57,449 nucleotides of DNA, from NCBI GenBank assembly GCA_963788655.1, contig CAWBHS010000091.1, positions 1 through 57,449 of the forward strand, given 5' to 3'. Each line of letters opens with the position of its first letter. Position 1 is the first letter of the stretch. The translations under genes were made by a program, and so were the position numbers. Below, piece by piece: positions 621 through 30,735 of this stretch. Under the pieces are notes generated by a model. The model made no database searches. It saw only the letters and a program-made list of their open reading frames with translations, and was not told the origin of the DNA. The stretch comes from an uncultured Verrucomicrobiae bacterium (lineage in GTDB: Bacteria; Verrucomicrobiota; Verrucomicrobiia; Limisphaerales; JAFGQR01).

Positions 621-2098
621 ATGCTGTGACATTGACGACAACGCACGAGCCGGCGACCGACATCGGGTTATTTGCTCCGCAAGAATCCTGCGCGTCCGCA
701 GTCGTTCAGCCTTTCGTTTGGCAAAGCGCACGTCTTTTATCCCGAAGCCACGCGGAGCGATGCACGGTCGCATTGCTGGTGGAGGTTGATCCGGTGGGCC
801 TGGTGCGAAATCGGCGCGGGCCATCCGGCGAAGGCGGCGCGTTGGCGCAATACGTCAATGACCGACCCTACGCGGCTTCCTCTTTTTTCAGCGTCGCGAT
901 TGCGGAAGTTTCGGCAGCGCGCTCTCCGGCAAAAGCAAGGAGCGTCCGGAACTCGTGGACACCCATTCCGCTGCGTGTGAATTTTCCGCGCTGCCGTGTC
1001 GTGGCGGTGAGGAGTTTTTGCGAAAACTGTTTGAGCCGCTTGGCTACACTGTGTCCGCGCGCCGGCTGCCTCTTGATGAGAAGTTTCCCGATTGGGGAGA
1101 GAGCTCCTATTTCCAGGTCGAATGGATGCCGCGACTGCCATTGCAGCAGCTTCTATCGCATCTTTACGTGCTCGTGCCGGTGCTGGACAACGACAAGCAC
1201 TATTGGGTTAGCGATGACGAAGTGGAGAAACTTTTGCGTCACGGCGAAGGCTGGCTGGCGATCGCACCCCGAACGCGAAGCCATCACACGCCGCTATCTC
1301 AAACACCAGCGCAGCCTGGTGGACGACGCGCTCGCGCAACTCGCGGATGAAAGCGAACCCAATCCGGATGCCGCCGCCGAGACGCGCGATGCCGAGGAAG
1401 CGGCGCTGGAAGTCATCACTTCGTAGCAGCCGAGGTAACGAGGCTCAAACTTCTCAGCAAACGAGTCAGAGCCTCCTCACGTCGGCTGCTACAGGACGAA
1501 GGACATCACGCTCAACGAACAGCGTCTTGGCTCGGTGCTGGCCGCGTTGAAAGCCAGTGGCGCGACTCGCGTTTTGGACTTGGGCTGTGGTGAAGGCAGA
1601 TTGCTTCAAGCTTTGCTGAAGGAAAAGCAGTTCACCGAAATCGTCGGCATGGACGTGTCGCATCGCGCGCTCGAAATCGCCCATGACCGATTGCACTACG
1701 ACCGCCTGCCGCCCGTTCAGAAGGAACGCCTGCGCTTCCTTCACGGCTCGCTCATTTACCGCGACCAACGTCTCGCCGGCTTCGATGCCGCCGCCGTGGT
1801 GGAAGTGATCGAACACCTCGACGCCGCGCGTCTGGCTGCGTTCGAGCGCGTGCTGTTCGAGTGCGCCAAACCAAAGCACATCGTCATCACGACGCCCAAC
1901 CGCGAATACAACGTGAAGTGGGAAACGCTGCCCGCCGGCAAGTTTCGTCATCGCGACCATCGCTTCGAGTGGACACGCGCGGAATTTCAGGCTTGGGCAA
2001 ATGGTGTTGCCGCGCGCTTCGGCTACAACGTGCGCTTTCTGCCCGTCGGCCCGGAAGATTCGGCGGTCGGTTCGCCGACGCAGATGGGGAGTGTTTGA
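621..2098 (+). CDS. hen1: 3'-terminal RNA ribose 2'-O-methyltransferase Hen1 (several frameshifts; true stop probably 2111)
   Basis: Segments in alternating frames: LTLTTTHEPATDIG / LRKNPARPQSFSLSFGKAHVFYPEA / QYVNDRPYAASSF / LYVLVPVLDNDKHYWVSDDEVEKLLRHGEGWL. Methyltransferase domain VLDLGCGEG, EVIEHL, TPNREYN, FRHRDHRFEWTRAEF, GSPTQMG. Confidence 0.92.
1423..1492. repeat. REP-like palindromic element (class A, GTAGCAGCCGAC...) inside hen1
   Basis: Arms gtagcagccgaggtaacgaggctc (1423-1446) and gagcctcctcacgtcggctgctac (1469-1492) are complementary at 21/24 positions. A related copy lies at 18994-19063. Confidence 0.85.
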
Positions 2099-2257: not shown

Positions 2258-3687
2258 CCACTGTCATCCCACAGGAAATTGTAGAAAATTGGTTGAATTG
2301 ACGTGAGGTTCCTGCCACGCAGCAGGAATGAAAAAGAAAAAACACATCAATTCAACCAAGAGTAAACTCACCATCCTGCGGCAGATCTGCAACTTTATTC
2401 CGAGTTTTCTCGTCAGTTCCTTAGCCCGCAAGCATCACTCGGAAAAGGATGCGCGCACCTTCTCGCATTGGAGTCATGTTGTCAGTCTGCTCTTCGCCAA
2501 GCTGACGCATAGCTTTGGGCTCAACGATGTCTGTGACGCCTTAGGGCTCTACTCGGGGCCGTTGGCGAGCATTCGTGGGGCGACGCCCCCCAAGCGCAAC
2601 ACCCTTTCGCACGCCAATAAAGAACGCCCGGCGGCGATCGCCGAGGATTTGTTCTGGGGCACGCTGGAACATCTGCGGCAGCAGAGCCCGGGCTTCGGGC
2701 GGCGGCGGTTTCCCGGCAAACTACGCCAGCTCAAGCGCACGATTCACTTGTTGGATTCCACCGTCATCGAGTTGGTAGCCAACTGTCTGGATTGGGCGGC
2801 CCATCGCCGGCGCAAGGCGGCCGCCAAGTGTCACGTGCGCCTGAATTTCGAGACGTTGCTGCCGGGGTTTGTGGTGGTGGATGTGGCGCGGGAACATGAC
2901 AACGTGCGGGCCGTCCAAGCCACCGCGGGCCTGAAAACAGGGGAGATTTTGATCGTGGACCGGGGCTACGTGGACTTGAACCACTTTGCCCTCTGGTCGG
3001 CGCGGGGCGTGATTTGGGTGACCCGTTGGAAGGCCGGCTTGAAGTACGACTTGCTGGACCGGCGGCCGGTCAAACCCGGCGGCAAGGTGCTGGCCGATGA
3101 ATGGATCATGTTGAATGAGGGCGTGCAAGCCCGACGCATTACGGCCTTGGTGGAGGTGGACGGCCAGGAACGGGAGATGGTGTTTCTGACCAACCAACTG
3201 GAGTGGAGTGCGGAAACCATCGTCGCGCTCTATCAGGCGCGCTGGGAAATCGAGTTGTTCTTCAAGCAAATGAAACAGACCCTCAAGCTGTGCGATTTGA
3301 TGAGCTATAGTGCCAACGGGATTCGCTGGCAGGTATGGACGGCCTTATTGGTGCAACTGCTCATGAGATATCTGGCCTGGGCCAGTGGCTGGAGTCATAG
3401 CTTTGTCCGCCTCTATGCGGTGGTGCGCTCGATCTTATGGCGCAAACTCGATGTGATTGGGATTTTGCAAAGCTATGGGACAGCCGGAGGCAGCTATCGC
3501 TATCTGGCGCAGCCCGAACAGGCCTATTTACCCGGATTAGAGTAAGGCTATAGGACAGCAACCACGGACTTGAGCGGCGTCGGCAGGCACCCCAAAACTC
3601 TAAACGTTAATTTCCAGAACGGGCAGGAAAACCAACGGCAATCCGTGGAATTTCCGCGCTAGCGGTGTGCCCGTGGGAAGCCAGTGG
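2258..3687 (+). mobile_element. IS4-family insertion sequence
   Basis: Imperfect terminal inverted repeats ccactgtcatcccacagg (2258-2275) and cccgtgggaagccagtgg (3670-3687), 15/18 match, bracket an intact transposase. No target-site duplication visible. Confidence 0.85.
2328..3545 (+). CDS. IS4 family transposase (DUF4372-like N-terminus + DDE domain)
   Basis: 405 aa ORF with LDST, DRGY and YxxRWxIExxFK (LYQARWEIELFFKQMK) motifs. Confidence 0.95.
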   Translation: MKKKKHINSTKSKLTILRQICNFIPSFLVSSLARKHHSEKDARTFSHWSHVVSLLFAKLTHSFGLNDVCDALGLYSGPLASIRGATPPKRNTLSHANKERPAAIAEDLFWGTLEHLRQQSPGFGRRRFPGKLRQLKRTIHLLDSTVIELVANCLDWAAHRRRKAAAKCHVRLNFETLLPGFVVVDVAREHDNVRAVQATAGLKTGEILIVDRGYVDLNHFALWSARGVIWVTRWKAGLKYDLLDRRPVKPGGKVLADEWIMLNEGVQARRITALVEVDGQEREMVFLTNQLEWSAETIVALYQARWEIELFFKQMKQTLKLCDLMSYSANGIRWQVWTALLVQLLMRYLAWASGWSHSFVRLYAVVRSILWRKLDVIGILQSYGTAGGSYRYLAQPEQAYLPGLE

Positions 3688-4390
3688 TTCGGTTGAAGCT
3701 CTCCAAATACTTGGCTCGTACTTTTGTCAACGTGGTTTTCTCATCACGGTGGCGACGAAGGCAGCTCCAAAACAATGCCCCTGCCTCCCAGTCCAATACC
3801 TGCATTTCGCTTTGACGCCCAGTCTCATCCGCAAATCGATACGAGAAACTGTAGGGCAACTTGGGAATAACTTGGAACGTCTTACGCCACGCTTCCTCCG
3901 TAAACAGTTCGCCTTGGTGCGCCTGATTTCGCATCTCGGCAAGTTTGTTCGCATCCCACTCACGAGCTTCTTCCTCCCAAACAAAATCCAGAATCTTGGT
4001 GGGCCGGAAGACTGCCAAAGAAAGTGTATTTGCCTTCGCGCCTTCAATCAGTGTCCGCAAATGAGAATACACTTTCGCGTTTTGCAGAATGAACCTTCGG
4101 CGTTCTCGCCAGTTGTTTTCGGTGCCCATATGCTCAACCGGACGCAACTGCCTCATGTCTGCCGGATGACGTGTTTCTGGCCGCGGATCGGTGCGGCTCT
4201 TGATCAAATCGCATTCTAGCCAGTCAAATTTGCGATATTGTTCTGGATCCTCCAATCGCCGGAAGGGCACAGGATACATCCGCAGCCACGATCCATCCTC
4301 GCGCACCCCGGCCGTGCAAACCGTTTCGCCATATTTCCGCGAAAGTGTCGGGTAAGTTTTTACGGTGATAAGGATTCGCTCCTTGGACAT
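3688..4390 (-). pseudogene. DUF488-associated (dual-OB-like) protein, C-terminus cut by the IS
   Basis: MSKERILITVKTYPTLSRKYGETVCTAGVREDGSWLRMYPVPFR...DPRPET...LDWE. The frame runs into the IS right end at 3687 and stops at 3659 inside the IS. Confidence 0.7.
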
Positions 4391-4413
4391 ACCTTGTGCC
4401 TTGCTTTCGTCGC

Positions 4414-5306
4414 TCAAAGATGGTTCGCGGTCAGTCGTGCCCCACCAATATGTTCCAATGCTTCGGCCACGCAATGGCGGTGGCACTGCTGCGGCCAGCG
4501 TTCGAAACAGGTCAAGGCCACTCGCTCGCCTGCCGCCACGAAACCGCGAATATGTTCCAAAGTAATTTGCTGCTGCGGCAAGCTCTCCCGTTCGTATTTC
4601 ACAAACAGCGCATCGTAATCTGCTTGTGTGTGCAACTCCCGGCGTTGGTCTGACGCTATACCTAGTTCCGGTAAGTGTTCGTAGCGAATGCCAACGCCTT
4701 CGCACACCTTGCTCAACGTGCCCTTCGAGAACCCATACTTCCGGCTCAACGGGTTTCGGCGCACGTCGCACAACAACGTCACACCATCGCGCAACAGCTC
4801 GTTCAGGTAACTTTCGAGAGTGCGACCCTCGTAACCAATCGTCACCAACCCGGCGGGTTTGGGCTTGGGCTTGGCGGCATCAATGCGTGTCAGCGTCTTG
4901 GTTGCAAGCGATAGCTTATCCAGAATCTCACTCCGCGTCGCGAAGTAGGGATGCCGCACATATTGCTCGACGATCAATGCGTTGCCGCGCAACTGGCGAT
5001 GTTGCCGACAAAAGCCGCAACCCGTAGCGGTTCGACCGCTTGACGTCGGGCTGCGGTGCATCCCGCTTCCGTGAGATTCCAGTTCTGGTCGTCGTCCGCC
5101 AACATTCCTTCTTCAATTAGTTTCCGTTTGTCGGCGTAGGAGGTGAAGGAGAACGCGCCGAACTTGTACGGTACAAAGTCGTAGCTGGGCCGGGGTTCAA
5201 ATTCCTGGGTGTAGAGGAATAGCAGCTTTTGAAAGTCGGTGTGTCCCACCGGTTCGCGAATCGCGTCCAGTAATGTTAACAATAACCGTTGGCGCTCAAA
5301 AAGCAT
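4414..5306 (-). CDS. wHTH (SocA/Panacea-like) + DUF488 domain protein (one frameshift near 5010)
   Basis: N-terminus MLFERQRLLL...FQKLLFLY...YDFVPYKFGAFS. C-terminal DUF488 motifs TIGYEG, DVRRNPLSRKYGFSK, YEHLPELG, LTCFE..CHR. The frame change sits in a T homopolymer. Confidence 0.85.
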
Positions 5307-5579
5307 GGGGCAAGATAGCTCGACGGATGTCAGGAGGAAATACCAAAGGTTGAGTTGTTTCAACCTTCCCGGGTAACAGTTGCTTTTGGCACGCGGCGAC
5401 CTAGAGCATTTGAATGCTCAGAAACTACATGACGCGTTGCGTGCTTGTTTACCCGAAAATCAAAAACTTAGTTTCAGCCCTGTCCTTCTTCACCCGTGCA
5501 ATCCGATAAATCCGCGGTTTAGCTTTCCCTTTTATTGGATTGAACCATTTAAGCGCTTCCTCACCTTTGCCGCACTGCT

Positions 5580-6915
5580 TCACGGAATCACGAGCTTGGT
5601 GCGGATGAATTCCAGCGTCTTGGGCTGACGGAAATAGTTCGAATGATGCACCTCGTCCGTGGTGCCGAAGTCCAGCACGTTGGCCGGCTTGAGGTGAATT
5701 CGTCTGCCAGCTCGTCCATCGAATTGCAGTCCACCACCAGATCGTTGTCGCCTTCGAAAACGAGGTCGGCGGACCAGTCTTTCAGGCGGACCAACGGTTT
5801 GGAAAAGTAACGCCAGAATGCCCAGCCGGGACTCGTTGGTCTCGAAGTTCGCCTTCACGGCGTAATACTCGAGGTTGGCCGAGCCGGTGTAGGTGCGAAG
5901 GCGAAGGATCTCGCCATTGGTGCCGGCCAGGGATTGCGCGGCCAATCCGGGAATCATCGCCACCGCGGCATCAATGAGTGGCGCTTTGGCCACCACGCGC
6001 GTGATCGAGTTGATGATCCGCAAGATGCCACTGGCAAACGCAAAGAACGGCACGCCGCTCAACAAGCCAGTCCCGTGTTGCAGCACCTCGCCGACGTTGG
6101 TCAGGAAATTGATTGCGTTCTTCAGCCGGGCCGGCGCCGCCAAACTGGTGCCGGCGATGGGCGAGGCGACCAGCACGGCGCGGAGCTTGGTGCGCGGATC
6201 GGCAAAGCCTTCCAGCCACCAGCGCGTCACCAGTCCGCCGCGGCTGTGGCAGATCACGTCCACGCTTTCCGGCGCCTCGCGCAGCAAGGCCGCCAATTCG
6301 AAGGCGTTCAGTACCGGACTGACGCCCACGGTGGGATGGTCGAAAGTCAGGACTCGATCGTATTTCTTCCGCGCGGCCGCGAGGAACTTGTGGCCGGTGC
6401 CGTTGGACGCCGCCTGGACTTCGCCCAGTACGTGGTCGCAATTGCTGAAGGTGCCGTGGATGAACAAGAGGATCTTTTTCCCGCTCGTCGCACCGCGAAA
6501 GGGAACCATTGCGGAGCCGTTCCACTCGCGCAAGCCGTAGGCGCGATCCGCTTGATTCTCGAGGGTGAGCTTGCGGTCCAGGGCTTGGAGGGCGGAACCC
6601 ACCTTGGACGGCTCGATTTTCTCATAGACAAACTGGTGCAGTGACCTGTCCCGGCACCACCGCTGCCCGGCCTGCCCGGCGTCGTCCACCACGCCAATAA
6701 GGCGTCACCGCGCCTTCCTCCCAACGCAAGACGCCGTCATTGCGGCGGGTGAGCGTGAGTTGGTCCACGCCGCTGGTGTCCGGCCGGAGGCCCGCGCGGC
6801 GCGAGGGTTTGAGAATGCCCGCGGGGAGCTGGCCGAAGGAATACACGCCCAACGGTTCGGCGGCGCGGCAGATTTGGTCCACCAGCGCCTGGTCGGCTGA
6901 AGGTTCAGGTAGCAT
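5580..6915 (-). CDS. alpha/beta-hydrolase (lipase/PGAP1-like) with N-terminal extension (frameshifts near 6640, 5830, 5700)
   Basis: LFIHGTFS, FDHPT, nucleophile elbow CHSRGG, SPIAGT, NDLVVD and VHHSNYF give a Ser-Asp-His triad when the frames are joined. Starts 12 bp after the upstream stop. Confidence 0.85.
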
Positions 6916-6927
6916 AAGCGAGCCGGG

Positions 6928-9267
6928 TTAATCGTTGCGGTCGTAAATGGGCAGGGGCGTCACGCCATGATTGCGCGCGGTTTGCACATCGACCATCGCG
7001 TCAAACAGGGTTTGGTCCTGCAAATTGTTCAGGCCCGCGCCGCCGGCTTCGTCGAAGGCGGCTTGTTGCGTGAGCAGCGTCGCTTCCAGTGGCACGAGGT
7101 CGCCGCTTTGGAGGGCCGGCACCAATTCGGCGTAGCCGGCGCTGCCGCCCACCATCCAGGCTTCGTCTTGACCCTCGTTGGTCCAGTCCTTGTGCGCGGC
7201 TTGTTGCGTGCCTTCCACGGCTTGGGCGTAACCAAACCGCTCGAACATGTCGTGCTTGTCGGGGCTGCGCCAATAGCCGGGGAAGGCGTGTCCGCGGATC
7301 AGGAAGATCACCGGGTAAATCCCGACGTATTCAAGGCAGGCGGCATACAGTAACGCCAAGTCAATGCACGTGCCGCGTTGCTCGGTCAGAATCCGATCCG
7401 GGGTGCGAATGCGTTGTGAGAGGTCCGTGTAGGTTGGCGGGGGATTGATGTAGCTGAGCGGGCAATCATAGATCAGAGCCGTCCACAGGGCGCGCGCTTG
7501 CAAGTCCACAACCCCCAGCGGATCGGTGGGGTCCGCGCCGACGCTTTGGTAACCGTCGAAGCCGGCCCCGCGATCGTCCGCCAGGACGGTCAGGTAACGC
7601 TGGGCGCCCGCGATGATGCGGGCGATGCCTTTGTCTTCGGGCATCACGAACGACGGCAGCCAGCAACGGTCCTGGTCGGTGTCCCGCCATTCATCGACCG
7701 GCGGCAAGGTAACCTGGTGGGTGTCGCGGTACACGTCCACGCCGCCGCAGGTTACCTCGACGAAAATCGTGGTGCGAATGCTCTCGCGCGATTGCCGTAG
7801 CAACGCCGACACCAGCGGCACGCGCACCACGGAGCGGAGGTCCAGGCGCCAGGTATCGGCTTCCAGGTTGCGCGTCAATCGATACGGGAACGTCACGTCG
7901 CCGGCGTAGAGTTCCACGGCAATCCGGATGCCGCGCAACCGGCCCGGTTTCAGTTTCTGAAGAATAAAGGTTTCAAAGAGATCGCGGTTGTTGTGCAGCA
8001 GGGAATAATTGAGCTGCGGTTCGGGTTTCACCTGAACTTCGAGCACTTCCCGCGGATCCTGTTTCGCCAAATCCGTATCGTCCGACGCGATCCTGCCGGC
8101 GGTTGGCACGCGGGGCACGGCCTTGGGTTTGGCCAGCAGCGAGTGGTCACTCCACAACACGATTCCTGCCTGCCGGCCCAGCGGGTGTGACACCAAGCGT
8201 TGGCGCGCATGTTGAAACGCGGCGAGCACGTTCCAACGGGAAGATCGCCAGGTGCTGTAGAAATCCGCATAAAACTGTTCGGCCACGGTATCGTCGATGA
8301 GATCCTGAAAGCCGATTGCCAGGCGGGCGCCACCTTCGGCCACGGCGAGCGCCGCCAGGCGGGCGGCGGCATTCCAGCAGTTGAACGCCACGAGCAGGAC
8401 TTGGTGCTCCGGCGGACGCAGGGCGTGCGCCAGTTCGAGCGGCTTGATGATGGCCGCGCTGTTGGCGCCACCGCGCAGCAGGAATCCGTCGGCTTGTTCC
8501 GGATTGTCCAACCCGATCAGCATTTCGCCCTGATGCACATCCACACCGGTGAGGTGAATGACGTGCGGGCGCCGGGTGGCGATGGCCTCAGCCAGTTGCT
8601 CGAGACTGGGATCGGTCAGCATGCTTTGGCAGGCCTGCGGCCCGGCATCGGTCAAGCCCAGCGCGCTGTGAACCAGGCGGCACTCGGAAGCAAAGGAATA
8701 ATACCCGGCCAATCTGCCGGGCGCACTTTGGGCAAACATCAATTGCGAGGGATGATCCACCGCGGTCACGGGGGACGGGGCGATTCGTTCAATCATGCGC
8801 ACCACCGTGATCCCCCGGTCGCCGCGAAGAGCCTTGGTGGCATGGGCGATGACTCCTTCCCAGGGGAAAATGCGCGCCGCCCAACCGAGGTCTTCGCGTT
8901 TGTACGGAATCCGCACCTCCACGACGCCGGCTTCGGCAAACCGGCGCAAGGTTTCCTGGTCCACGCCCATTTTCTGCAAATCCGCCGTGCTCCGTTCCAT
9001 CAGCCCCTGCCGGGTGTCGTCCGTAATGCGCCGACGGTTGCTTACGATGTAACTCCAATACCGCGCGGCGCCGTAGAAATCCCAATCATTGATTTTTAAC
9101 CGGAAGACCGGCACGTCCTTGGCATGGAAGGCGATTTCGTAGCTTTCCCGGCGCCGGGGTGATGCGGGGGCGCAGGTTGGGTGGGAGTGCCGCCGCGATT
9201 TGGAAGCGGGCTTGGATTTTTTCGCCGTCCTGGCTCGCGGGCTTTTTGAGGAAGATTTTTTGGGCAT
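6928..9267 (-). CDS. CHAT-like (caspase-fold) domain + beta-sandwich + transglutaminase/papain-like domain protein
   Basis: ATG 9267 with AAGGAG SD upstream. CHAT-like hallmarks FPWE, RPHVIHLTGVD, LVAFNCW, AIGFQDLIDDTVAEQFYADFY. C-half has DGYQS, SYINPPP, QRIRTP, RGTCIDLALLYAACLE, GHAFPGYW, LEATLL, DVQTARNHGVTPLP. Confidence 0.75.
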   Translation of the reverse strand: MPKKSSSKSPRARTAKKSKPASKSRRHSHPTCAPASPRRRESYEIAFHAKDVPVFRLKINDWDFYGAARYWSYIVSNRRRITDDTRQGLMERSTADLQKMGVDQETLRRFAEAGVVEVRIPYKREDLGWAARIFPWEGVIAHATKALRGDRGITVVRMIERIAPSPVTAVDHPSQLMFAQSAPGRLAGYYSFASECRLVHSALGLTDAGPQACQSMLTDPSLEQLAEAIATRRPHVIHLTGVDVHQGEMLIGLDNPEQADGFLLRGGANSAAIIKPLELAHALRPPEHQVLLVAFNCWNAAARLAALAVAEGGARLAIGFQDLIDDTVAEQFYADFYSTWRSSRWNVLAAFQHARQRLVSHPLGRQAGIVLWSDHSLLAKPKAVPRVPTAGRIASDDTDLAKQDPREVLEVQVKPEPQLNYSLLHNNRDLFETFILQKLKPGRLRGIRIAVELYAGDVTFPYRLTRNLEADTWRLDLRSVVRVPLVSALLRQSRESIRTTIFVEVTCGGVDVYRDTHQVTLPPVDEWRDTDQDRCWLPSFVMPEDKGIARIIAGAQRYLTVLADDRGAGFDGYQSVGADPTDPLGVVDLQARALWTALIYDCPLSYINPPPTYTDLSQRIRTPDRILTEQRGTCIDLALLYAACLEYVGIYPVIFLIRGHAFPGYWRSPDKHDMFERFGYAQAVEGTQQAAHKDWTNEGQDEAWMVGGSAGYAELVPALQSGDLVPLEATLLTQQAAFDEAGGAGLNNLQDQTLFDAMVDVQTARNHGVTPLPIYDRND

Positions 9268-9624
9268 GTTCCGCTCCTTGCTGCGCGTAATGGGTTGATG
9301 ATCGTGTCGTCGCCGTCCGTTCAATCGATTCAGTCCTAAGACATTGCGATGCAGAGCATAGAAGAAACGTATGGTTGGTGGCAACGGCAAAGTGGCGGAG
9401 GCCGGTTCGATCGGGGGGGCGCTCCTGTCGTTCGGCGCAGGCTTCGGTCGCTTCACTGTTGCGGTTAGGCAATACTGGCAACTGGCCAAACCACTGGGGC
9501 AAGAGGAACTTTAAGCGGTTTTCCGTTGCAATTGTGGTTCAGACGACTGCCAGTCCGCGATACCCCAAATTGAAAATCTGCGCTACGCCTAGCGTTACCA
9601 GCCAGGCGTTTCGTAGTTCCGCCA

Positions 9625-9980
9625 GGTCTTGGAGTGCGGCAGCCCTCTGCCGCTTTCGAACGACTCGCAGACCTCGTGACCACGAGCCGCGCCCGCCGAC
9701 TTTGCGCCGCCGCCCTCCATGCGAAAGCGCCGGCAAGCCGGGCGCACTCCAAACGCTGGCGCGTCTTTCCTGCTGGCCCGGCCCAACCTCGCGCCAGCGC
9801 TTGGAGTGCGTGGAGCTTGCTCCCGCTTTCGTTGGCGACCGGGCAAACAAAACTCCGGCACGCTCCGCCGTTGTCCCACGCCCAGCAGACGCAGACACCC
9901 CGCCATCTCACGATTTCTTCCGCCCATCCGCCGGCGATTCCCTCTCCCCTCAAAGAGGGGAGAGGGTTAGGGTGAGGGGT
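9625..9980. repeat. Cluster of REP-like palindromes (TTGGAGTGCG class and CCCTCTCCCC class)
   Basis: ttggagtgcggcagccctctgccgctttc; arms gcactccaaacgctggcgcg / cgcgccagcgcttggagtgc; perfect 12-bp hairpin ccctctcccctc-aaa-gaggggagaggg (9940-9966). Confidence 0.75.
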
Positions 9981-10041
9981 GCGAAAAGAAAGGACCGATC
10001 ACATTCCTACGGTCTCCAACCAGCACAAAACCCGCCGCCCG

Positions 10042-11967
10042 CTAAGGGACCGAAACCATTGCTTCCGTCCATTCGCGCAAGTCCCAGTCACCCCATTGCA
10101 CGTCGGCGGTCAACAATTGCAAATCCACCTTGGCGGTTTCAGGCACCGCGATTTTGAACTCGATGGCTCCTTCCTCACGCGCATTGAGGCGCAGCGGGCT
10201 GGGTGTCGTGGCGCGAGGCATCCAACCATCCGGCAGATGCAGGCGCGCAGCGAAGGTTTGTTCGGTCGGCGAATGATTGAAAAGGCGCAGGTAGAGCGTG
10301 AGGATTTCTCCGGGATGCGCTGGCGTCGCGTAAGGATAGAAACGCGCCCAGCTTTCATCGAGGCCAAAGTTCGGATCATCCCAGGGCAGCAGTGCTTGCA
10401 GAAGACCCACTCGCTGCTTCAGAACGTCGAGCATCTGGTTGATTTGCGCCTCACTAAACCGGAACGTCGGCCCAACGTGCTCGTTGATCAACCGGGCCTC
10501 GGGTGCGACGCGTTTTACCAGCTCCAGACAATAGAAATACCCCATCCCCTCGTGCAGCAGATTGCGGTTGAGCAGACAGTAATCATCGATGCCCGAGGGG
10601 GTAAATGAGTCACCGATAAAGAAGAATTGTTCACCGGAGTCTTTCTTCACCAGGAGCGCGTCGTGGTACAGGGTTTGACCGGGAAAGTAATAAAGGGTCA
10701 TTTCAAATTCCTTCCAGCGCCACCGCTCGCCGTTGACCGCGCGGCCGGACACATGAATGGGGTGGGCCGTCAGACACGGCAGACGATACGCGCTGGGATG
10801 TTCAAGCACGTCAACATTTCGCAACGACGCATGAACCGTGGCGCCAAACGTCTCGACGAGTTTCGAAACCTGGTCCGTGTGGTCGTCGTGGTAGTGAGTG
10901 ACAAATAAATGTTCGATGGAACTGAGTTTTCCGGCCGCTTGCAGTTTCTTCAATTCGTCAATGATGTGTTGGCTGCCGCAGTCCACGAGGAAACCGGTTT
11001 TATCCGTCGCCAGAATGAGGCGTGAGTTGCTAATGGGCACGATCCACGCGGGCAATTCTTCGACCGTCTCGGCCATGGGCATCCAATCGACCTTCGCTTG
11101 CGGCCCGAGCACGCGCCGGGCTTTGGCCAGGATGTGTTCGTCCTTGAAATACCAACGCAGCGCATCGATGGCGAGGTAGTTGGCGTAAAGCGCCCGAATC
11201 CTGCCAATCAGAGTGTCAATCGCCTTGGCAGGATCCCGGATGACCGGGCCACGGGCGGGAATGAGCAGATCCGGCTTCTCCGCCGCGATCTGGTTCAGGC
11301 TCGTGATGACCTCGCCGAGACGCGCCGCGTAACCGTGGTAGCCGCCGATCTTCGCCGCCGGGAGCGCATCCTGAAGACTGTACAAATCCAGGAGTTGGCC
11401 GTCCCCATAAATCAGGTCGCCGGTGAAGGCAATGCGCCGGCCCTCGAGTTCCATCAAATACGTCACCGCCCCCCGCGTGTAGCCGGGCGTGTCGAGGACG
11501 CGAATGGGTAGGCCCTGCCAATTGAGCACGTCGCCGCCCCGAACCGATTGCGCCACGGCAATTGGGTGGCGGAGAATCTTCGTGGTTTGTTGGGCATAAT
11601 CGTGAAAGCGCTTCGTCGCGAAGTCCGACCAGAATCTCCGGACCTCCGTGAACTTGTCCAATTCCGCCGCCGGCACGATGGCTTTGGCGCCGGCCGTCAC
11701 GAGCGTGTCAGCCGCCCAGACCACGTCGCGGCGGTGGTGTGTGAGCAAGACAGTATCGACCTTTGCCGGTGTGTCACGCGGATCACCATAGACCGCGAGT
11801 ATCTTTCCCTTGCGTGACAACACTGCGCCATTGACCGGGCCGTGTAATACTTGCAAGTCCTTCGCGACGTTTTCGACGGTGAGTGGTGCTGATGAGGCCA
11901 GTGCAGTGCTCCCGGCAAGGAACGTAAGCGGCACCAACCATTTGAGGTTGCGGGCGATGTGAGCCAT
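10042..11967 (-). CDS. Exported tandem MBL-fold metallo-hydrolase
   Basis: Signal peptide. Domain 1 THHRRD..TPGYT..FTGD (degenerate); domain 2 THYHDDH..PGQT..IGDS; C-terminal beta-sandwich-like segment. Confidence 0.85.
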   Translation of the reverse strand: MAHIARNLKWLVPLTFLAGSTALASSAPLTVENVAKDLQVLHGPVNGAVLSRKGKILAVYGDPRDTPAKVDTVLLTHHRRDVVWAADTLVTAGAKAIVPAAELDKFTEVRRFWSDFATKRFHDYAQQTTKILRHPIAVAQSVRGGDVLNWQGLPIRVLDTPGYTRGAVTYLMELEGRRIAFTGDLIYGDGQLLDLYSLQDALPAAKIGGYHGYAARLGEVITSLNQIAAEKPDLLIPARGPVIRDPAKAIDTLIGRIRALYANYLAIDALRWYFKDEHILAKARRVLGPQAKVDWMPMAETVEELPAWIVPISNSRLILATDKTGFLVDCGSQHIIDELKKLQAAGKLSSIEHLFVTHYHDDHTDQVSKLVETFGATVHASLRNVDVLEHPSAYRLPCLTAHPIHVSGRAVNGERWRWKEFEMTLYYFPGQTLYHDALLVKKDSGEQFFFIGDSFTPSGIDDYCLLNRNLLHEGMGYFYCLELVKRVAPEARLINEHVGPTFRFSEAQINQMLDVLKQRVGLLQALLPWDDPNFGLDESWARFYPYATPAHPGEILTLYLRLFNHSPTEQTFAARLHLPDGWMPRATTPSPLRLNAREEGAIEFKIAVPETAKVDLQLLTADVQWGDWDLREWTEAMVSVP

Positions 11968-12916: not shown

Positions 12917-15222
12917 TTAGATCATCCAACGCTCGCGGTTCGGCGGCCATTTCATAGACGGTGATCACGGGAATGCTCGTGCGGTCGGCCAGTTCCAGCG
13001 GCGGCGCGTAGGCCAGCAGTTGCTCGATCACGCCGGCCTCCGTGCCGCCGATGACGATCAGGTCCGCGTCGCTGCGACTCGCGCAACAAGCCCGTGACGA
13101 TGTCGCCGGACCTGGATCACCTTCTGTTCGCTGCGCGGACAACGCTCGCCCAGTTCCTTGTTCATCGCTTCCTCGCCGCGCGCTGCGCTTCCTCGGCGCG
13201 TGGCCGTCCAGGGCAAAACATGCACCGCCCGCACCTGCGTCTGCTGGATCCGCGCCAAACGCCTCCGCCAGATCGGCGCTCAATTTGGAATGCGGCCCGC
13301 GCTCGTAGGCGAGCAGCACGGTTTCGATCTGCTCGGGCCAGCGTTCGGCGGTCACGACCATCACCTGCGCGGGCGCGGATCGCACCACGCGGTCCACGAT
13401 GGTCGCCGCAAACCGCTCGATCAAGCCCGACGCGCCGCGCGCGGCCCATCACGATCAGGTTGCATTGTTCCTCCAGCGCCGTTTCCGTGACGCCGAAGGA
13501 AATGCGGTGGGAAATCTTGACGACGACTTTGACGGGGATGCCTTCGAATCGCAGGTCGCGCACGAGGCGATCGAGCGCTTGCTCGGCTTTCTGCGCCTCG
13601 TTCCATGCCTTGCGCCAGCAGATCGCGGTCGGGCACTTCGACCACCGACAACACAATCATTTCGCCGTCGTAATGGCGCGCCACCGCGGCGGCCGCCTGG
13701 AGGATGATTTCCGCGCGGGACAGACTGCCGACGCAGGCCAGGATGCGGTATTCCCGCCGTTCCGCCGCCTCGCGCACCGCGACCAGTTGCGCGTAGGCGC
13801 GGTCCCGCTTGCGCGAGTAACCGTAGAACACCACCAGCCCGATGCCGATCCACACGCCCGCGCTCAACCACGCCAGCGGGCTGTAGAAGAACAGGAAGAC
13901 GGCCAGCGCCAGTTGCAGCAGGATGCCGACGATGGGAACGAACGGCGAGAAGCGGCACTTTGAACCCGCGCCGCAGGTCGGGGCGTTTCTTGCGCAGGGA
14001 GATCAACGCCGCCTGCACCTGGATGAACAGCAGCAGGAACATGATGTTCGCCGCGCTCGCCACCACCTCGATCGGCAGCGTCACCGCCATCGACCGCGCT
14101 CAACACGCCCGAGGCCAGGATGGACCAGTGCGGCGTCTTGCGCAGCGGATGAATCTTGCCGAACCACGACGGCAGATTGCGGTCGCGCCCCATCGCGAAG
14201 GAAACGCGCGAGGACGAATAGATCGTCGCGTTCAACGCGCTCATGGTGGAAAACAAGCCGCCGATCAGGATCAGCACGCCGCCGCCGCGGAAGAACGTTT
14301 CCGCCACGTTCACCAGCGCGGTTTCCTTGTGCTCGCCGAGGTATTTCCAGCTGGGCATCCCCTCCGGCTGCACCGCGCCCAGCGCCGCGAACGCCACCAG
14401 CAGGTAAATCGGCACCACGATCAGCAGCGAGAGGAAGATGGCGCGCGGCACGTTGCGTTCCGGGTTGCGCACCTCCTCGCTGCACTGCGCGATGATTTCG
14501 TAACCCTCGAACGCGATGAACGTCAGCCCCATCGCGATGAACACGCTGCCCGAGCCGTTGGGCAGCGGAGTTCTCGGTGAAGGTCAGGTGCCAGTCCGGC
14601 CGCTGCAAGCGTGATCCAGATGCCGAAGCCGATGAACACCGCCAGCAGCACGATCTTGCCGCCGGTCACGATGTTGCCCGCGCCGCCCGCCTCCGACGCG
14701 CCGCGATAGTTGATGTAGCAGAACACCGCCACCACCGCCACGGCCATCCATTTTTCCATCGGCAGAAACGGCAGGGTGAAGTCTCCCAGTCCGAGCAGCG
14801 GCAGACATTCCTTGCAGATACGCCCCGAAGCCCAGCGCATACAGCGCGCACGCCACCACGTAGGCGAACCACGACATCCAGCCGCTCATGAATCCCTGCG
14901 GATCCTTGAGGCCCGTCTTCACGTAGAGATAACCGCCGCCCGCGCTGTGGAACGACGAACCGAGTTCCGCATAGGCCGCCGCCGCGAAGAGCGTCACCAC
15001 GCCGTTGAGCAGGAAGACGAGAATCAGCGCCGGCCCGGCCACGCCCGCCGCGATGCCGGTGAGCACGAAGATGCCCGCGCCGATCATCGCGCCGACGCCG
15101 ATCATCGTGATGTCCAGCAGCCGCATCTCGCGGCTCAGCCGGACTTCGGAGGACGTGGCGGGCGTCGGCGCCGCGTCGGCGCCTGCGTCGTTGGCTGGTA
15201 ATTCCGGTTCGTTTCCAGGCAT
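12917..15222 (-). CDS. APC-family amino-acid permease with C-terminal universal stress protein (USP) domains (multiple frameshifts)
   Basis: IGVGAMIGAGIF, AELGS..AGGGY, FIAFEGYE..EEVRNPERN, SSRVSFAMGRD. C-terminal USP-like segments ILACVGS, LSVVEVP, CNLIVMG, ADLIVIG, IPVITV. Confidence 0.85.
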
Positions 15223-15339
15223 CGCCGTTCAGGGTTTTGCGCGGGCAGTCTGCGGCCATCCGCAGCTTGATGGCAACACACAAAACCGGGCGGGCCGGGC
15301 CGCCGCATTGGCGGACGCCGCTTCGGGAACTATTACCAG

Positions 15340-26527: not shown

Positions 26528-27871
26528 TCAACCGCCTAACGCTGCCGGGGCGCTGATGTCGCCTTTGTTGAATCCGACGTATTCTTCCGTCAGATCCGCG
26601 GCGTAGATGTAAGCGCTCGAACGACCGAGGTTCAGGTTGACGTGGAGATCAAATTCCTTGGCGGCGACTGCTTTGCAGAGCTGCTTGAAGGTGACTTTGG
26701 TCGGCTGGCCACGCTTGAGGCTCCAGAGAACCTTGGAACTGCCTGGTGTGCTGTAGCCAATATCAACCTTTCCCTCGACCACCTCGGCGGAACTGTAACC
26801 CAACGCGTCAATAATACGTCCCCAATTCGGATCGCCGCCGAACCAACTGGTTTTCACCAACGCACTGTTGGCCACCGCGCGCGCGGCGGCATCAGCATCG
26901 TGAAAATTCCGCGCGCCATTCACGCGTACTGTGACGAAACGGGTCACGCCTTCGCCATCCCGCACGATCATCTTGGCCAGCTCCAGGCAGACGTGGTTGA
27001 GGGCGTCCTGAAACACTTGGAAGTCCGGCACGCGGCGCAGCACGTTGTAACCGGACTTGAGCCGCGGATTTTCCGCCAGCCCGTTAGCCATTAGAAGCAC
27101 GGTGTCGTTGGTGCTCATGTCGCCATCCACCGTGATGCAATTGAAACTCTGGGCCACAGCCTCCTGCAATGCCGCCTGGAGCGCGCGCGGCTCGACGTCG
27201 GCATCGGTGGTCAAAAAGCACAGCATGGTTGCGTGCAGCGGTCGGGCTGCCGGACGGCGTCCCGACGCGCTCATGCCGGGTTGGATCATGCCGGCACCTT
27301 TACAGATGCCCCCAAGTCGAACGGTTTTGCCGCCCAGTTCGAAGGCCACGGCGATCTGCTTGGCGTGAGTGTCGCTGGTGAGGATGGCCTCGGCGGCGAA
27401 CGTCGCGTCGGCCACCGTGCTACCCAAGCTCGTCGCCGCCCGGTGAATGCCGGTTCGCACCCGTTCCATCGGCAGGGGCAATCCAATCCGACCGGTCGAG
27501 GCCACCAGTACCTGGTTGGCCGGTATTTTGAATTCCCGGGCCACCAGCGCCGCCATCTCAGTTGCGTCCTGCCGGCCTTGTTTGCCGGTACAGGCATTGG
27601 CGTTGCCGGAATTGGCCACCACGGCCCGGGCCACGCCGCGAGCCACGCGCGGGATACAAACTTTGACCGGGGCGGCGGCGATTTGGTTGGTGGTGAACAT
27701 GCCCGCGACGGCGCACGGCATTTCCGAAAGGATCAGGGCCACGTCCGGCTTTTGGCCTTTCTGCGAGCCTTTGCCCGTGCTCAGGCCCTGGACGCCGCAG
27801 TACACGCCCGCCGCCAGGAAACCCTGCGGAGCGACCACCGAACCAGCAATTGTTTTGAATGATGTTTTCAT
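26528..27871 (-). CDS. argJ: Ornithine acetyltransferase / N-acetylglutamate synthase
   Basis: NSGNANACTG, STGRIG, KGAGMI, ATML, DGDMSTND, DGEG, DPNWGR. Confidence 0.97.
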   Translation of the reverse strand: MKTSFKTIAGSVVAPQGFLAAGVYCGVQGLSTGKGSQKGQKPDVALILSEMPCAVAGMFTTNQIAAAPVKVCIPRVARGVARAVVANSGNANACTGKQGRQDATEMAALVAREFKIPANQVLVASTGRIGLPLPMERVRTGIHRAATSLGSTVADATFAAEAILTSDTHAKQIAVAFELGGKTVRLGGICKGAGMIQPGMSASGRRPAARPLHATMLCFLTTDADVEPRALQAALQEAVAQSFNCITVDGDMSTNDTVLLMANGLAENPRLKSGYNVLRRVPDFQVFQDALNHVCLELAKMIVRDGEGVTRFVTVRVNGARNFHDADAAARAVANSALVKTSWFGGDPNWGRIIDALGYSSAEVVEGKVDIGYSTPGSSKVLWSLKRGQPTKVTFKQLCKAVAAKEFDLHVNLNLGRSSAYIYAADLTEEYVGFNKGDISAPAALGG

Positions 27872-30123: not shown

Positions 30124-30735
30124 ATGGCAGCCCCCAAAACCGTGCAACATCTGAGTGAAGCCGAATACCTCACGATTGAACGCGCTGCGGAGTTCAAGAG
30201 TGAATTCTTTGATGGTGAAATGTTCGCCATGGCCGGGGGAACGCCCATGCATAGTTTAATTGGGGCCAACCTCATCGGGGAGTTGCGGACCAAACTTAAA
30301 GGCAGTCCCTGCATGCCGTTTACCAGTGATTTGCGCCTAAAAGTGGAGGCGACCGGTTTGCTCACTTATCCCGATGTGACGGTGATCTGTGGCCCCTTGC
30401 AATTCGCCGCTGGCACGGACGATACTGTGATCAATCCAACATTGATTGTGGAAGTGTTGTCCGACTCGACCGAGGCTTACGACCGCGGTGAGAAGTTTCA
30501 ACATTATCGACGGATACCTTCACTGCAAGAATACCTGCTCGTCAGTCAACGACGGCCGCGGCTTGAGCACTTCCAGCGTCGCCCGCAAGACGAATGGACG
30601 TTGCGAACGGCGGAGGAGCAAACAGCGACGCTGGCCCTGCCCTCGTTACAGATCACCCTCGAATTGCAGGAAGTCTTCGCCGGTGTCAAATTTGTGCCCG
30701 CGCCCATCCGCCCTCAATTACGACCGCCGGTTTGA
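30124..30735 (+). CDS. Uma2 (DUF820) family endonuclease-like protein
   Basis: EYLTIERAAEFKSEFFDGEMFAMAGG..H, YPDVTV, VEVLSDST..DRGEKF..Y. Confidence 0.92.
   Translation: MAAPKTVQHLSEAEYLTIERAAEFKSEFFDGEMFAMAGGTPMHSLIGANLIGELRTKLKGSPCMPFTSDLRLKVEATGLLTYPDVTVICGPLQFAAGTDDTVINPTLIVEVLSDSTEAYDRGEKFQHYRRIPSLQEYLLVSQRRPRLEHFQRRPQDEWTLRTAEEQTATLALPSLQITLELQEVFAGVKFVPAPIRPQLRPPV

Follow-up and report, generated by a model that had tools for sequence, protein, structure and literature searches.

A two-gene module, made by a large predicted cysteine peptidase and a lipase-like alpha/beta-hydrolase, resides in contig CAWBHS010000091.1 of an uncultured Verrucomicrobiae bacterium (assembly GCA_963788655.1). 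The analysis covered positions 1 to 57,449 of the contig, in nucleotides (nt), referred to below as the window. According to alignments and structural models, the large protein, which measures 779 amino acids (aa), features a CHAT/caspase fold devoid of the His-Cys dyad family-wide, an immunoglobulin (Ig)-like beta-sandwich, and a transglutaminase-like thiol-peptidase fold which keeps a putative Cys-His-Glu triad. The hydrolase belongs to the DUF7379 family. The pair is a real, conserved two-gene module, rare yet widely scattered among bacteria, and its two members very probably work together. The hydrolase copy in the window is most likely a pseudogene, as judged from its reading frames.

The minus strand carries both genes, at the positions which had been assigned to them in the initial annotation, a reading of the letters of the window made before any database search. 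The sequence AAGGAG is found 7 nt 5' of the ATG of the open reading frame (ORF) encoding the large protein. A longer version of this gene, starting with TTG at 9489, was discarded, as it finds no support in the N-termini of the homologues; the ATG at 9267 is preferred because homologues begin with the same basic tail, of the MPK/MAK type. The ATG of the hydrolase, at 6915, is located 12 bases past the stop codon of the large gene. It opens a 97-aa ORF (6622..6915), the end of which is overlapped by a 370-aa ORF in another frame (5580..6692). A promoter and terminator scan of the 5300-10100 interval gave counts at chance level, with one promoter-like site at 9384-9355.

Relatives of the large protein are found in many bacterial groups. 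A word-index search identified 24 full-length relatives, 34-49% identical to the window protein, and 187 relatives were confirmed in contigs from 185,579 species genomes, one genome per species. Carriers belong to Acidobacteriota, Gemmatimonadota, Planctomycetota, Verrucomicrobiota, Burkholderiales, Bradyrhizobium, Thiodiazotropha, and others. A profile of the C-terminal half of the protein found 5118 matches among 1.84 billion representative proteins, 1121 of them at E<=1e-30, and the 150 listed of these 5118 matches all feature the same architecture. The large protein was not found in any of the 40 relatives examined, which share the genus (one) or the order (39) of the window's genome. When the DUF7379 model (PF24096) was run over 301 genomes of the phylum, 28 scored above the cut-off, mostly by partial matches on generic hydrolases, and the informative cases were only those in genomes G120, G328 and G271, and a second place in G000.

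For neighbourhood work, 80 of the 187 loci (L numbers below) were kept. The downstream gene was judged in the 73 loci having at least 900 bp downstream of the match, the remaining ones (L005, L013, L031, L038, L052, L060, L078) being too short. A hydrolase homologue resides downstream of the large gene in 67 of the 73, on the same strand in 66 and on the opposite strand in one (L046). The median gap between the two genes is 15 bp, and the hydrolase of the related loci is a single ORF, with a median length of 458 aa. Clustering of all ORFs of at least 100 aa from the 80 loci sorted out only two conserved genes, that of the large protein, seen in 80 loci, and that of the hydrolase, seen in 69. 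The remaining recurrent clusters are made by ORFs overlapping or antisense to the two genes, and no third conserved gene was found by this clustering. Taken together, the 67 loci and the clustering bear out the early proposal that the two genes are conserved neighbours. When 24 loci are compared pair by pair, the identities of one protein correlate with those of the other (r 0.946), a value reached in none of 2000 permutations of sequences which, being kin, are not independent; the correlation shows that the two genes are co-inherited.

Six loci lack the hydrolase despite 8 kb of downstream sequence (L009, L011, L034, L037, L047, L064). In two of them, both from Acidobacteriota, the hydrolase is swapped for an HExxH protein of 518-544 aa with a weak match to Peptidase_M36 (L011, 10261-11892; L064, 10354-11907). 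The two HExxH proteins are 69% identical to each other. In L047, a 360-aa multi-pass membrane protein is found in place of the hydrolase.

Domains of the two proteins

The large protein opens with a basic tail in which no hydrophobic signal-peptide core is recognizable, as judged from the sequence. The region which follows matches the Pfam CHAT model (PF12770) at residues 189-373 with 30.1 bits, against a cut-off of 24. A model of residues 50-400, built from their own alignment, reached a predicted local distance difference test score (pLDDT) of 90.9, and in a Foldseek search retrieved SAVED-CHAT (8tl0) as best match (E 2.5e-9), followed by Csx29, separase and caspases. In the family profile alignment, the catalytic His of 8tl0 (HFIGHG) aligns with Val242 (8542-8544), and the catalytic Cys (LNACC) with Trp297. 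The columns of both residues vary across the family, and there is no conserved Cys in the N-terminal half. Alignment to the active-looking CHAT of P0148, a fusion relative described below, is weak (probability 9.9%) and agrees on the missing dyad. A degenerate CHAT had been recognized early from the motifs TGVD (residue 240) and FNCW (295), both present as quoted, and this assignment stands for the fold as for the loss of the HG and NAC positions. Invariant residues are found in this half nonetheless, namely His238 (8554-8556), Gly241, Asp243, Pro-Trp-Glu 135-137, Arg157 and Glu195. The pattern suggests that a binding surface has been kept, rather than a thiol protease.

The model of residues 401-779, again from their own alignment, has a pLDDT of 87.3. 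A Foldseek search with this half against the PDB gave weak multi-domain matches (template modelling score < 0.21), and a VIA-align search was used instead. For the beta-sandwich, alignment to the sandwich domains found in band 4.2/transglutaminase and in GH2 enzymes gave Z values of 8-9.6. Residues 529-775 align to 3kd4_B (Z 9.7, 135 residues aligned, root mean square deviation 3.1), PNGase 2f4o (Z 8.8), TglA 9crn (Z 8.1), PeiP/PeiW (Z 7.7-7.8) and LapG (Z 7.4), all Z values being moderate. As in the transglutaminase-like cysteine peptidases BDI_1141 (3kd4), PNGase, PeiP/PeiW and LapG, matched at Z 7.4-9.7, Cys634 opens a helix in the model, and His660 opens the strand that follows. In contrast to these enzymes, the protein stays below the cut-off of the Pfam transglutaminase-type models (DUF553, 15.2 versus 20.5 bits; Transglut_core, 14.3 versus 23), and has a long insertion which separates His660 from Glu728. 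Cys634 and His660 are invariant in an alignment of 49 sequences, Glu728 is conserved in at least 90% of them, and this degree of conservation argues for catalysis. The motifs from which a Cys-His-acidic set had been proposed (GTCID at 632, GHAF at 659, LEAT at 727) are all in the protein, and both the 49 sequences and the VIA-align fold match are in line with that proposal.

The hydrolase is assigned to DUF7379 by the 370-aa ORF, which scores 120.8 bits against a cut-off of 33, and matches Abhydrolase_6 as well. HGTFS, HSRGG (cHSRGGL), NDLVVD (NDLVVDt.SM) and HHxNYF (hHtNYF) are conserved in 35-49 hydrolases, and the family consensus holds a full Ser-Asp-His triad. The closest solved sequence is that of a putative lipase (7x2p, E 1.3e-6), which has the HSRGG motif in common; Candida lipase B matches weakly. 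Look-alike clusters, found from features, bear PGAP1, DUF676 and LCAT, and relatives are annotated in the source records as 'esterase/lipase family protein'.

The first 100 residues or so of the hydrolases form a leader, in which a helix, an Arg-rich motif, a hairpin (S-L-V-x-x-D-G-V-L-R-W) and a second Arg-rich motif, often RRxG or RRRGRR, follow one another. Leaders were parsed by pattern in 43 of 49 hydrolases, and the six unparsed ones show the same layout by eye. A di-basic motif is found 5-32 residues before the hairpin in all 43, and after the hairpin in 38; the other five, from Bradyrhizobium and Holophagales, feature R-A-G there. A Tat or Sec signal was ruled out, since no hydrophobic stretch follows the Arg run. 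The complex between residues 50-779 of the large protein and the 91-aa leader of the window, predicted from their own alignments, scored 0.00 twice with an uncertain fold of the partner, a result which speaks neither for nor against binding.

Table 1. Positions of the module, of its parts and of neighbouring genes in the window
Feature	Position	Strand	Basis or remarks
Pseudo-CHAT / beta-sandwich / transglutaminase-like protein gene	6928..9267, stop included	-	intact ORF, 779 aa
Lys/Arg/Pro-rich N-terminal tail, residues ~1-50	9118..9267	-	sequence and family alignment; poorly conserved
Helical N-domain and CHAT/caspase fold, residues ~60-375	8143..9090	-	Pfam, profile alignment, model, Foldseek, conservation
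Ig-like beta-sandwich, residues ~404-523	7699..8058	-	model; starts with invariant LNYSLLHN motif
Transglutaminase-like cysteine-peptidase fold (predicted), residues ~529-775	6943..7683	-	VIA-align, conservation
Putative triad of the transglutaminase-like domain	Cys634 7366-7368; His660 7288-7290; Glu728 7084-7086	-	
DUF7379 alpha/beta-hydrolase (lipase-like) gene	5580..6915	-	three frameshifts
Hydrolase leader, 91 aa in own frame	6643..6915	-	helix, RR motif, DGVLRW hairpin, second motif RRRAGR
DUF7379 core	5934..6470	-	HGTFS oxyanion motif 6444-6458; nucleophile Ser in HSRGG 6243-6245
Frameshift 1	6641..6643	-	one surplus base between ...PGQV and LHQFVYE...
Out-of-frame stretch	5699..5840	-	from frameshift 2 (extra A at 5840) to frameshift 3 (missing C near 5699)
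Hen1 RNA-repair methyltransferase, two ORFs	Hen1_L 626-1426; methyltransferase 1535-2098	+	
IS4-type DDE transposase with DUF4372	2328-3545	+	directly after Hen1
PDC-M19B	3659-4771	-	PADLOC, 294 bits
PDC-M19A/DUF488, split	4974-5363 (profile 2-88); 4414-5061 (profile 97-293)	-	overlapping frames
641-aa metallo-beta-lactamase-fold protein	10042-11967	-	775 bp upstream; weak LmuA match, E 3.4e-4
Amino-acid permease, at least two pieces	14584-15222 (profile 3-106); 13864-14544 (profile 190-334)	-	

Relatives and known systems

Longer relatives of the hydrolase (842-1974 aa) carry a CHAT domain in the same chain in 62 of 65 cases, and Peptidase_C14 in one more, so that the remark in the initial annotation that HGTFS/HSRGG lipases go with CHAT proteins proved sound. 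The usual order of the domains is DUF7362-DUF7379-DUF7363-CHAT. Fusions recur between DUF7379 and peptidase domains, namely active CHAT, C14 and C25. A DUF7362-DUF7379-CHAT fusion of 1265 aa, encoded in contig 31 of G120 (L112, 3024-9822), keeps SGHG and NAC; its gene lies two genes downstream of one encoding a 608-aa protein with a Peptidase_C14 caspase domain. P0148 is 44% identical to the hydrolase of L012, and features the same Arg-rich leader and a C-terminal CHAT with SCHG and NAC. The fusions, which are defined by Pfam and called 'CHAT domain-containing' or 'DUF7379 domain-containing' in the sources, thus resemble the module in that the same hydrolase family is joined to CHAT, and P0148 also in its Arg-rich leader. 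They differ in being one polypeptide with an active-looking CHAT (HG, NAC), and in having neither the beta-sandwich nor the transglutaminase-like part. Since DUF7379 is otherwise fused to an active CHAT, a dead CHAT plus a new thiol-peptidase domain takes the place of the active CHAT in the window-type module.

The C-terminal half has relatives of another kind. By tblastn against plasmids, the large protein matched 79 records, always only along residues ~385-779; among the 15 plasmid matches listed, 13 are annotated as DUF3320 proteins, one as a DUF4011 protein and one is unannotated. A Mesorhizobium loti plasmid protein is 29% identical to the C-terminal half over ~320 residues (BLASTP E 9e-30), and has the Cys, the His and the Glu. 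It scores 1185.6 bits with the PDC-S37 model and 517.5 bits with Hhe, and its DUF4011 region starts at residue 396. Homology and scores bear out the resemblance of this half to the N-terminus of DUF4011/DUF3320 helicases which had been pointed out at the outset. What is common to the Hhe/PDC-S37 helicase-nucleases is the N-terminal module, whereas their helicase, DUF4011, nuclease and DUF3320 parts are missing in the large protein. One DUF4011 helicase of the window's class aligned to the C-terminal half with an hhalign probability of 91.4%, and features Ser and Gln at the Cys and His positions; a second one of this class (L117) gave no hhalign match to it. No DUF4011 was found in the window's own genome. 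The M. loti DUF3320 protein (L120, 6800-14840) measures 1987 aa and has an MTES_1575 nuclease domain. Two insertion sequence (IS) transposases precede its gene, and genes for a 'DNA repair exonuclease' and a 'DNA-binding protein' follow.

The best matches of the N-terminal half, in structure as in sequence, are SAVED-CHAT (8tl0) and the TPR-CHAT protein Csx29 of type III CRISPR systems. These proteases are active, and cyclic oligoadenylate or target RNA turns them on, whereas the window family has no dyad, no SAVED or TPR region and no CRISPR context.

A closer parallel may be drawn with a pair reported from Lysobacter capsici. As set out in the portions of the preprint of Evans et al. (2025; PMC12642450) that deal with this pair, LcCaspase cuts LcHydrolase after Arg73 and Arg117, an Arg followed by a Gly in both cases. 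The cut sites lie 44 residues apart, and the N- and C-terminal pieces jointly kill Escherichia coli; effectors with a metallo-beta-lactamase (MBL) fold are also linked to proteases there. In this system, as far as it is described, a protease-family gene and an alpha/beta-hydrolase gene are likewise adjacent, and an effector with lipase-like affinities stays latent until two Arg cuts are made. In contrast to the window family, in which a dead caspase fold is joined to an added transglutaminase-like domain and no sensor is seen, LcCaspase is active, and caspases are reported in that source to be usually fused to sensors. LcHydrolase, of 296 aa, is cut according to the same account inside its fold, whereas the Arg motifs of the window family lie in the leader, ahead of the DUF7379 fold. 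Two conserved Arg-rich motifs ~40 residues apart are compatible with double cleavage of the LcHydrolase type.

Caspase-superfamily domains of MoxR-vWA systems always have a neighbouring alpha/beta-hydrolase gene, and transglutaminase-like peptidases are a rare alternative in these ternary conflict systems, according to the relevant sections of Kaur, Burroughs, Iyer and Aravind (2020; PMC7159879). On that description the pairing of caspase and hydrolase is alike, but no MoxR, vWA or VMAP genes are conserved beside the window-type module.

No paper on DUF7379, or on a transglutaminase-like domain in DUF4011 proteins, was found in the literature, and searches found no title or abstract on a pseudo-CHAT plus transglutaminase-like architecture. 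PADLOC-DB 2.0 likewise has no model (0 families) for the window's proteins, an intact hydrolase, or two fusion relatives. The module had been called undescribed. This is correct for the architecture, but not for the logic, as the combination of a caspase-like protease with an alpha/beta-hydrolase effector is in print in the parts cited of PMC7159879 and PMC12642450. The architecture is an unlisted variant of the protease-effector theme, and no new category.

Possible function

The two genes may represent a conserved, translationally coupled protease-effector module. The leader would hold the hydrolase latent. The pseudo-CHAT would keep the partner-docking role that the active CHAT may have in DUF7379-CHAT fusions, and the transglutaminase-like domain would take over catalysis, cutting at or near the two Arg-rich motifs of the leader, which are likened to the sites of the doubly cleaved LcHydrolase zymogen described in PMC12642450. 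Once freed, the hydrolase would act as a cell-damaging effector by attacking ester lipids in the cell envelope, as part of a response of the conflict or abortive-infection type. The whole chain, from latency through docking, cleavage and membrane damage to a conflict response, is tentative, and its chances fall somewhat short of even. A bolder version envisages a catalytic hand-off within one protein, in which the groove of the pseudo-CHAT would recognize the Arg-rich leader and the transglutaminase-like domain would both sense the trigger and cut; the module would then be a stand-alone abortive-infection family, present in roughly one species in a thousand. We regard this version as unlikely. 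A role of the dead CHAT as sensor is speculation.

Several observations weigh against this reading. The two nearest ORFs on each side of the module were surveyed in the 46 loci whose flanks reach 5 kb or more on either side. PADLOC models were matched at E<=1e-5 by 12 of these 184 ORFs (8 of 92 and 4 of 92), a count without background control. Strong matches number only two, one in L016 to PDC-S01 and one in L044 to a DinG-type helicase. Others are partial, on generic domains which Pfam names too (helix-turn-helix, HtrA-like, subtilase, methyltransferase, radical SAM, cyclase), and further partial ones involve a TAP-like hydrolase, SspA/DndA, TPR and SduA. Enrichment of defence genes near homologues, which the initial annotation had led to expect, was therefore not seen in the flanks of the 46 loci, and according to Pfam the first 92 flank ORFs (23 loci) are mainly metabolic or housekeeping neighbours. 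Sixteen pattern matches were obtained in viral contigs, none of which was confirmed as a relative, and tblastn found no full-length relative on plasmids. Several Bradyrhizobium loci have flanking genes in common, suggesting stable chromosomal residence there. No sensor domain is recognizable in the module. Transglutaminase-like enzymes include amidases, isopeptidases and cross-linkers too, so that a protease role of the C-terminal half is not a given. LcHydrolase, as far as it is described in its source, looks like a member of another hydrolase family, shorter and with other motifs, in a comparison made by eye only. The missing association with defence islands is useful in itself, as a warning that the module may serve a purpose other than phage defence.

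A physiological role would accommodate part of these data. The module could be a regulated envelope- or lipid-remodelling pair of soil and aquatic diderms with large genomes, with a peptide or isopeptide bond of the envelope as the target of the transglutaminase-like domain, and a lipid ester as that of the hydrolase. The metabolic neighbours, PADLOC matches near the level of generic domains, the common flanks in Bradyrhizobium, and the failure to find the protein in viral contigs, or at full length on plasmids, all fit such a pair, as does the presence of pseudomurein endoisopeptidases, PNGase and LapG among the structural neighbours of the C-terminal half. Yet the spread is very patchy (187 in 185,579 species genomes, none of the 40 relatives of the window's genome), neither protein features a signal peptide in its sequence, and DUF7379 has repeatedly been fused to active CHAT, C14 and C25 domains. 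The C-terminal half is common to proteins of the Hhe/PDC-S37 type, the hydrolase may be swapped for a putative metallopeptidase (L011, L064), and decay in the window's genome fits a dispensable accessory gene. On balance a physiological role seems rather improbable.

Less probable still is a toxin and keeper acting without proteolysis, in which the large protein would bind the leader, the toxin would be released upon titration or degradation of the keeper, and the Cys-His-Glu set would act on another target, as in the modification of a phage or host protein: the tight coupling and co-variation of the two genes, the invariant pseudo-CHAT residues (His238, Asp243, Pro-Trp-Glu 135-137, Arg157, Glu195), suggestive of a kept binding site, and the loss of Cys and His in the homologous domains of some DUF4011 helicases, from which it appears that the fold can serve non-catalytically, suit this arrangement, but Cys634 and His660 never vary in the 49 sequences and Glu728 hardly does, the Arg-rich motifs of the leader resemble the cleavage sites of the LcHydrolase zymogen, and a decayed toxin beside an intact keeper is the reverse of addiction logic, even though a different contig carries an intact allele.

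Gating of effectors by proteases is coming to the fore as a central principle of bacterial immunity. A protease-effector module of this kind would contribute an example where the caspase-like domain that normally cuts has turned into a pseudo-enzyme, and a different thiol peptidase was brought in. It connects three uncharacterised families, the hydrolases of DUF7379, the CHAT domains that accompany them, and the domain at the N-terminus of DUF4011/DUF3320 helicases, and offers residues to test, namely Cys634, His660, the serine of HSRGG and the two Arg-rich motifs. If the hand-off were true, it would provide a first way into the function of the N-terminal domain that the DUF4011/DUF3320 defence helicases carry.

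The hydrolase copy in the window and its surroundings

Aligned to the window, homologous hydrolases fall into three segments defined by frame. At the first shift, a short contig from a ~95% identical strain (one contig, depth 2) is one base shorter, precisely at 6643. In the stretch from 5840 to 5699, the frame reading PGWAFWRYF...NDLVVDCNSMDELADE differs from that of the 370-aa ORF. The two shifts which delimit this stretch compensate each other, and leave out of frame the catalytic-Asp motif NDLVVD (5729-5746). Because of them, the Ser (HSRGG) and the His (HHSNYF) lie in the 370-aa ORF, and the Asp outside of it. No single reading frame of the window copy contains the full Ser-Asp-His triad, and the leader is in yet another frame. 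The initial annotation had reported a lipase-like gene with such a triad and an N-terminal extension 12 bp downstream of the large gene; its position, Ser, His and leader are as stated, but the Asp is out of frame and the leader is not continuous with the rest, a disruption at which that annotation did no more than hint. The three frameshifts point to a window hydrolase which is most likely dead, next to an intact large gene.

An intact second copy or allele of the 3' half of the hydrolase gene is found in contig 64 of the same genome, where bases 37-757, at its very start, share 96% identity with window 6260-5540. Its frame is uninterrupted, and it is free of both the extra A at 5840 and the deletion of a C near 5699. 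The two copies differ at 2 sites in the first 420 bases and at 23 in the last 300, and the likeness stops ~40 bases past the stop codon. The genes which follow in contig 64 (SecG and others) are not those found in the window, and the genome yielded no more than a single copy of the large gene.

The three frameshifts might also be assembly artefacts, due to mixed strains in a metagenome-assembled genome (86% complete, 5.6% contamination), the hydrolase being intact in the living cell. The contig 64 copy, free of both 3' indels, and the related strain's contig, free of the surplus base at 6643, are consistent with this explanation. None of the three indels resides in a homopolymer, however, and the 25 substitutions which separate the window from contig 64 around the two 3' indels denote a diverged allele, rather than noise. 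Moreover, other genes in the first 15 kb of the window are split too (Hen1, PDC-M19A and the amino-acid permease, beside the IS4-type transposase), whereas the 16-57 kb interval carries genes matched end-to-end by Pfam, such as hemE, hemN, hemY, hemH, argJ, argC, corA, fmt and others. Split genes near an IS and intact housekeeping genes elsewhere are read as local decay of an accessory region, and assembly artefacts are an improbable source of the frameshifts. Small shares of three sequencing runs gave contigs patchy over 6204-7677 and 8080-9400, which leave out 5699 and 5840.

The early remark that the module sits beside defence-type genes holds for the window, where a candidate PDC-M19 pair and the split Hen1 flank it, and not for the other loci. 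PDC-M19A is probably frameshifted too, to judge from its overlapping frames. The MBL-fold gene upstream of the module was considered as a possible part of it, and dropped because it is not conserved in other loci. Elsewhere, a type VI secretion Tle1-like phospholipase gene is found just downstream of the module in a member of the Lysobacterales (L070, 11504-12763), and a patatin-like phospholipase gene just upstream in a member of the Vicinamibacterales (L075, 5481-7562). Two tRNA genes called by ARAGORN in the window, tRNA-Ala(tgc) at 15149-15227 inside the permease and a 100-nt tRNA-Ala(ggc) at 27562-27661 inside argJ, are doubtful. A putative restriction endonuclease of the Uma2 family is encoded among housekeeping genes at 30124-30732, on the plus strand.

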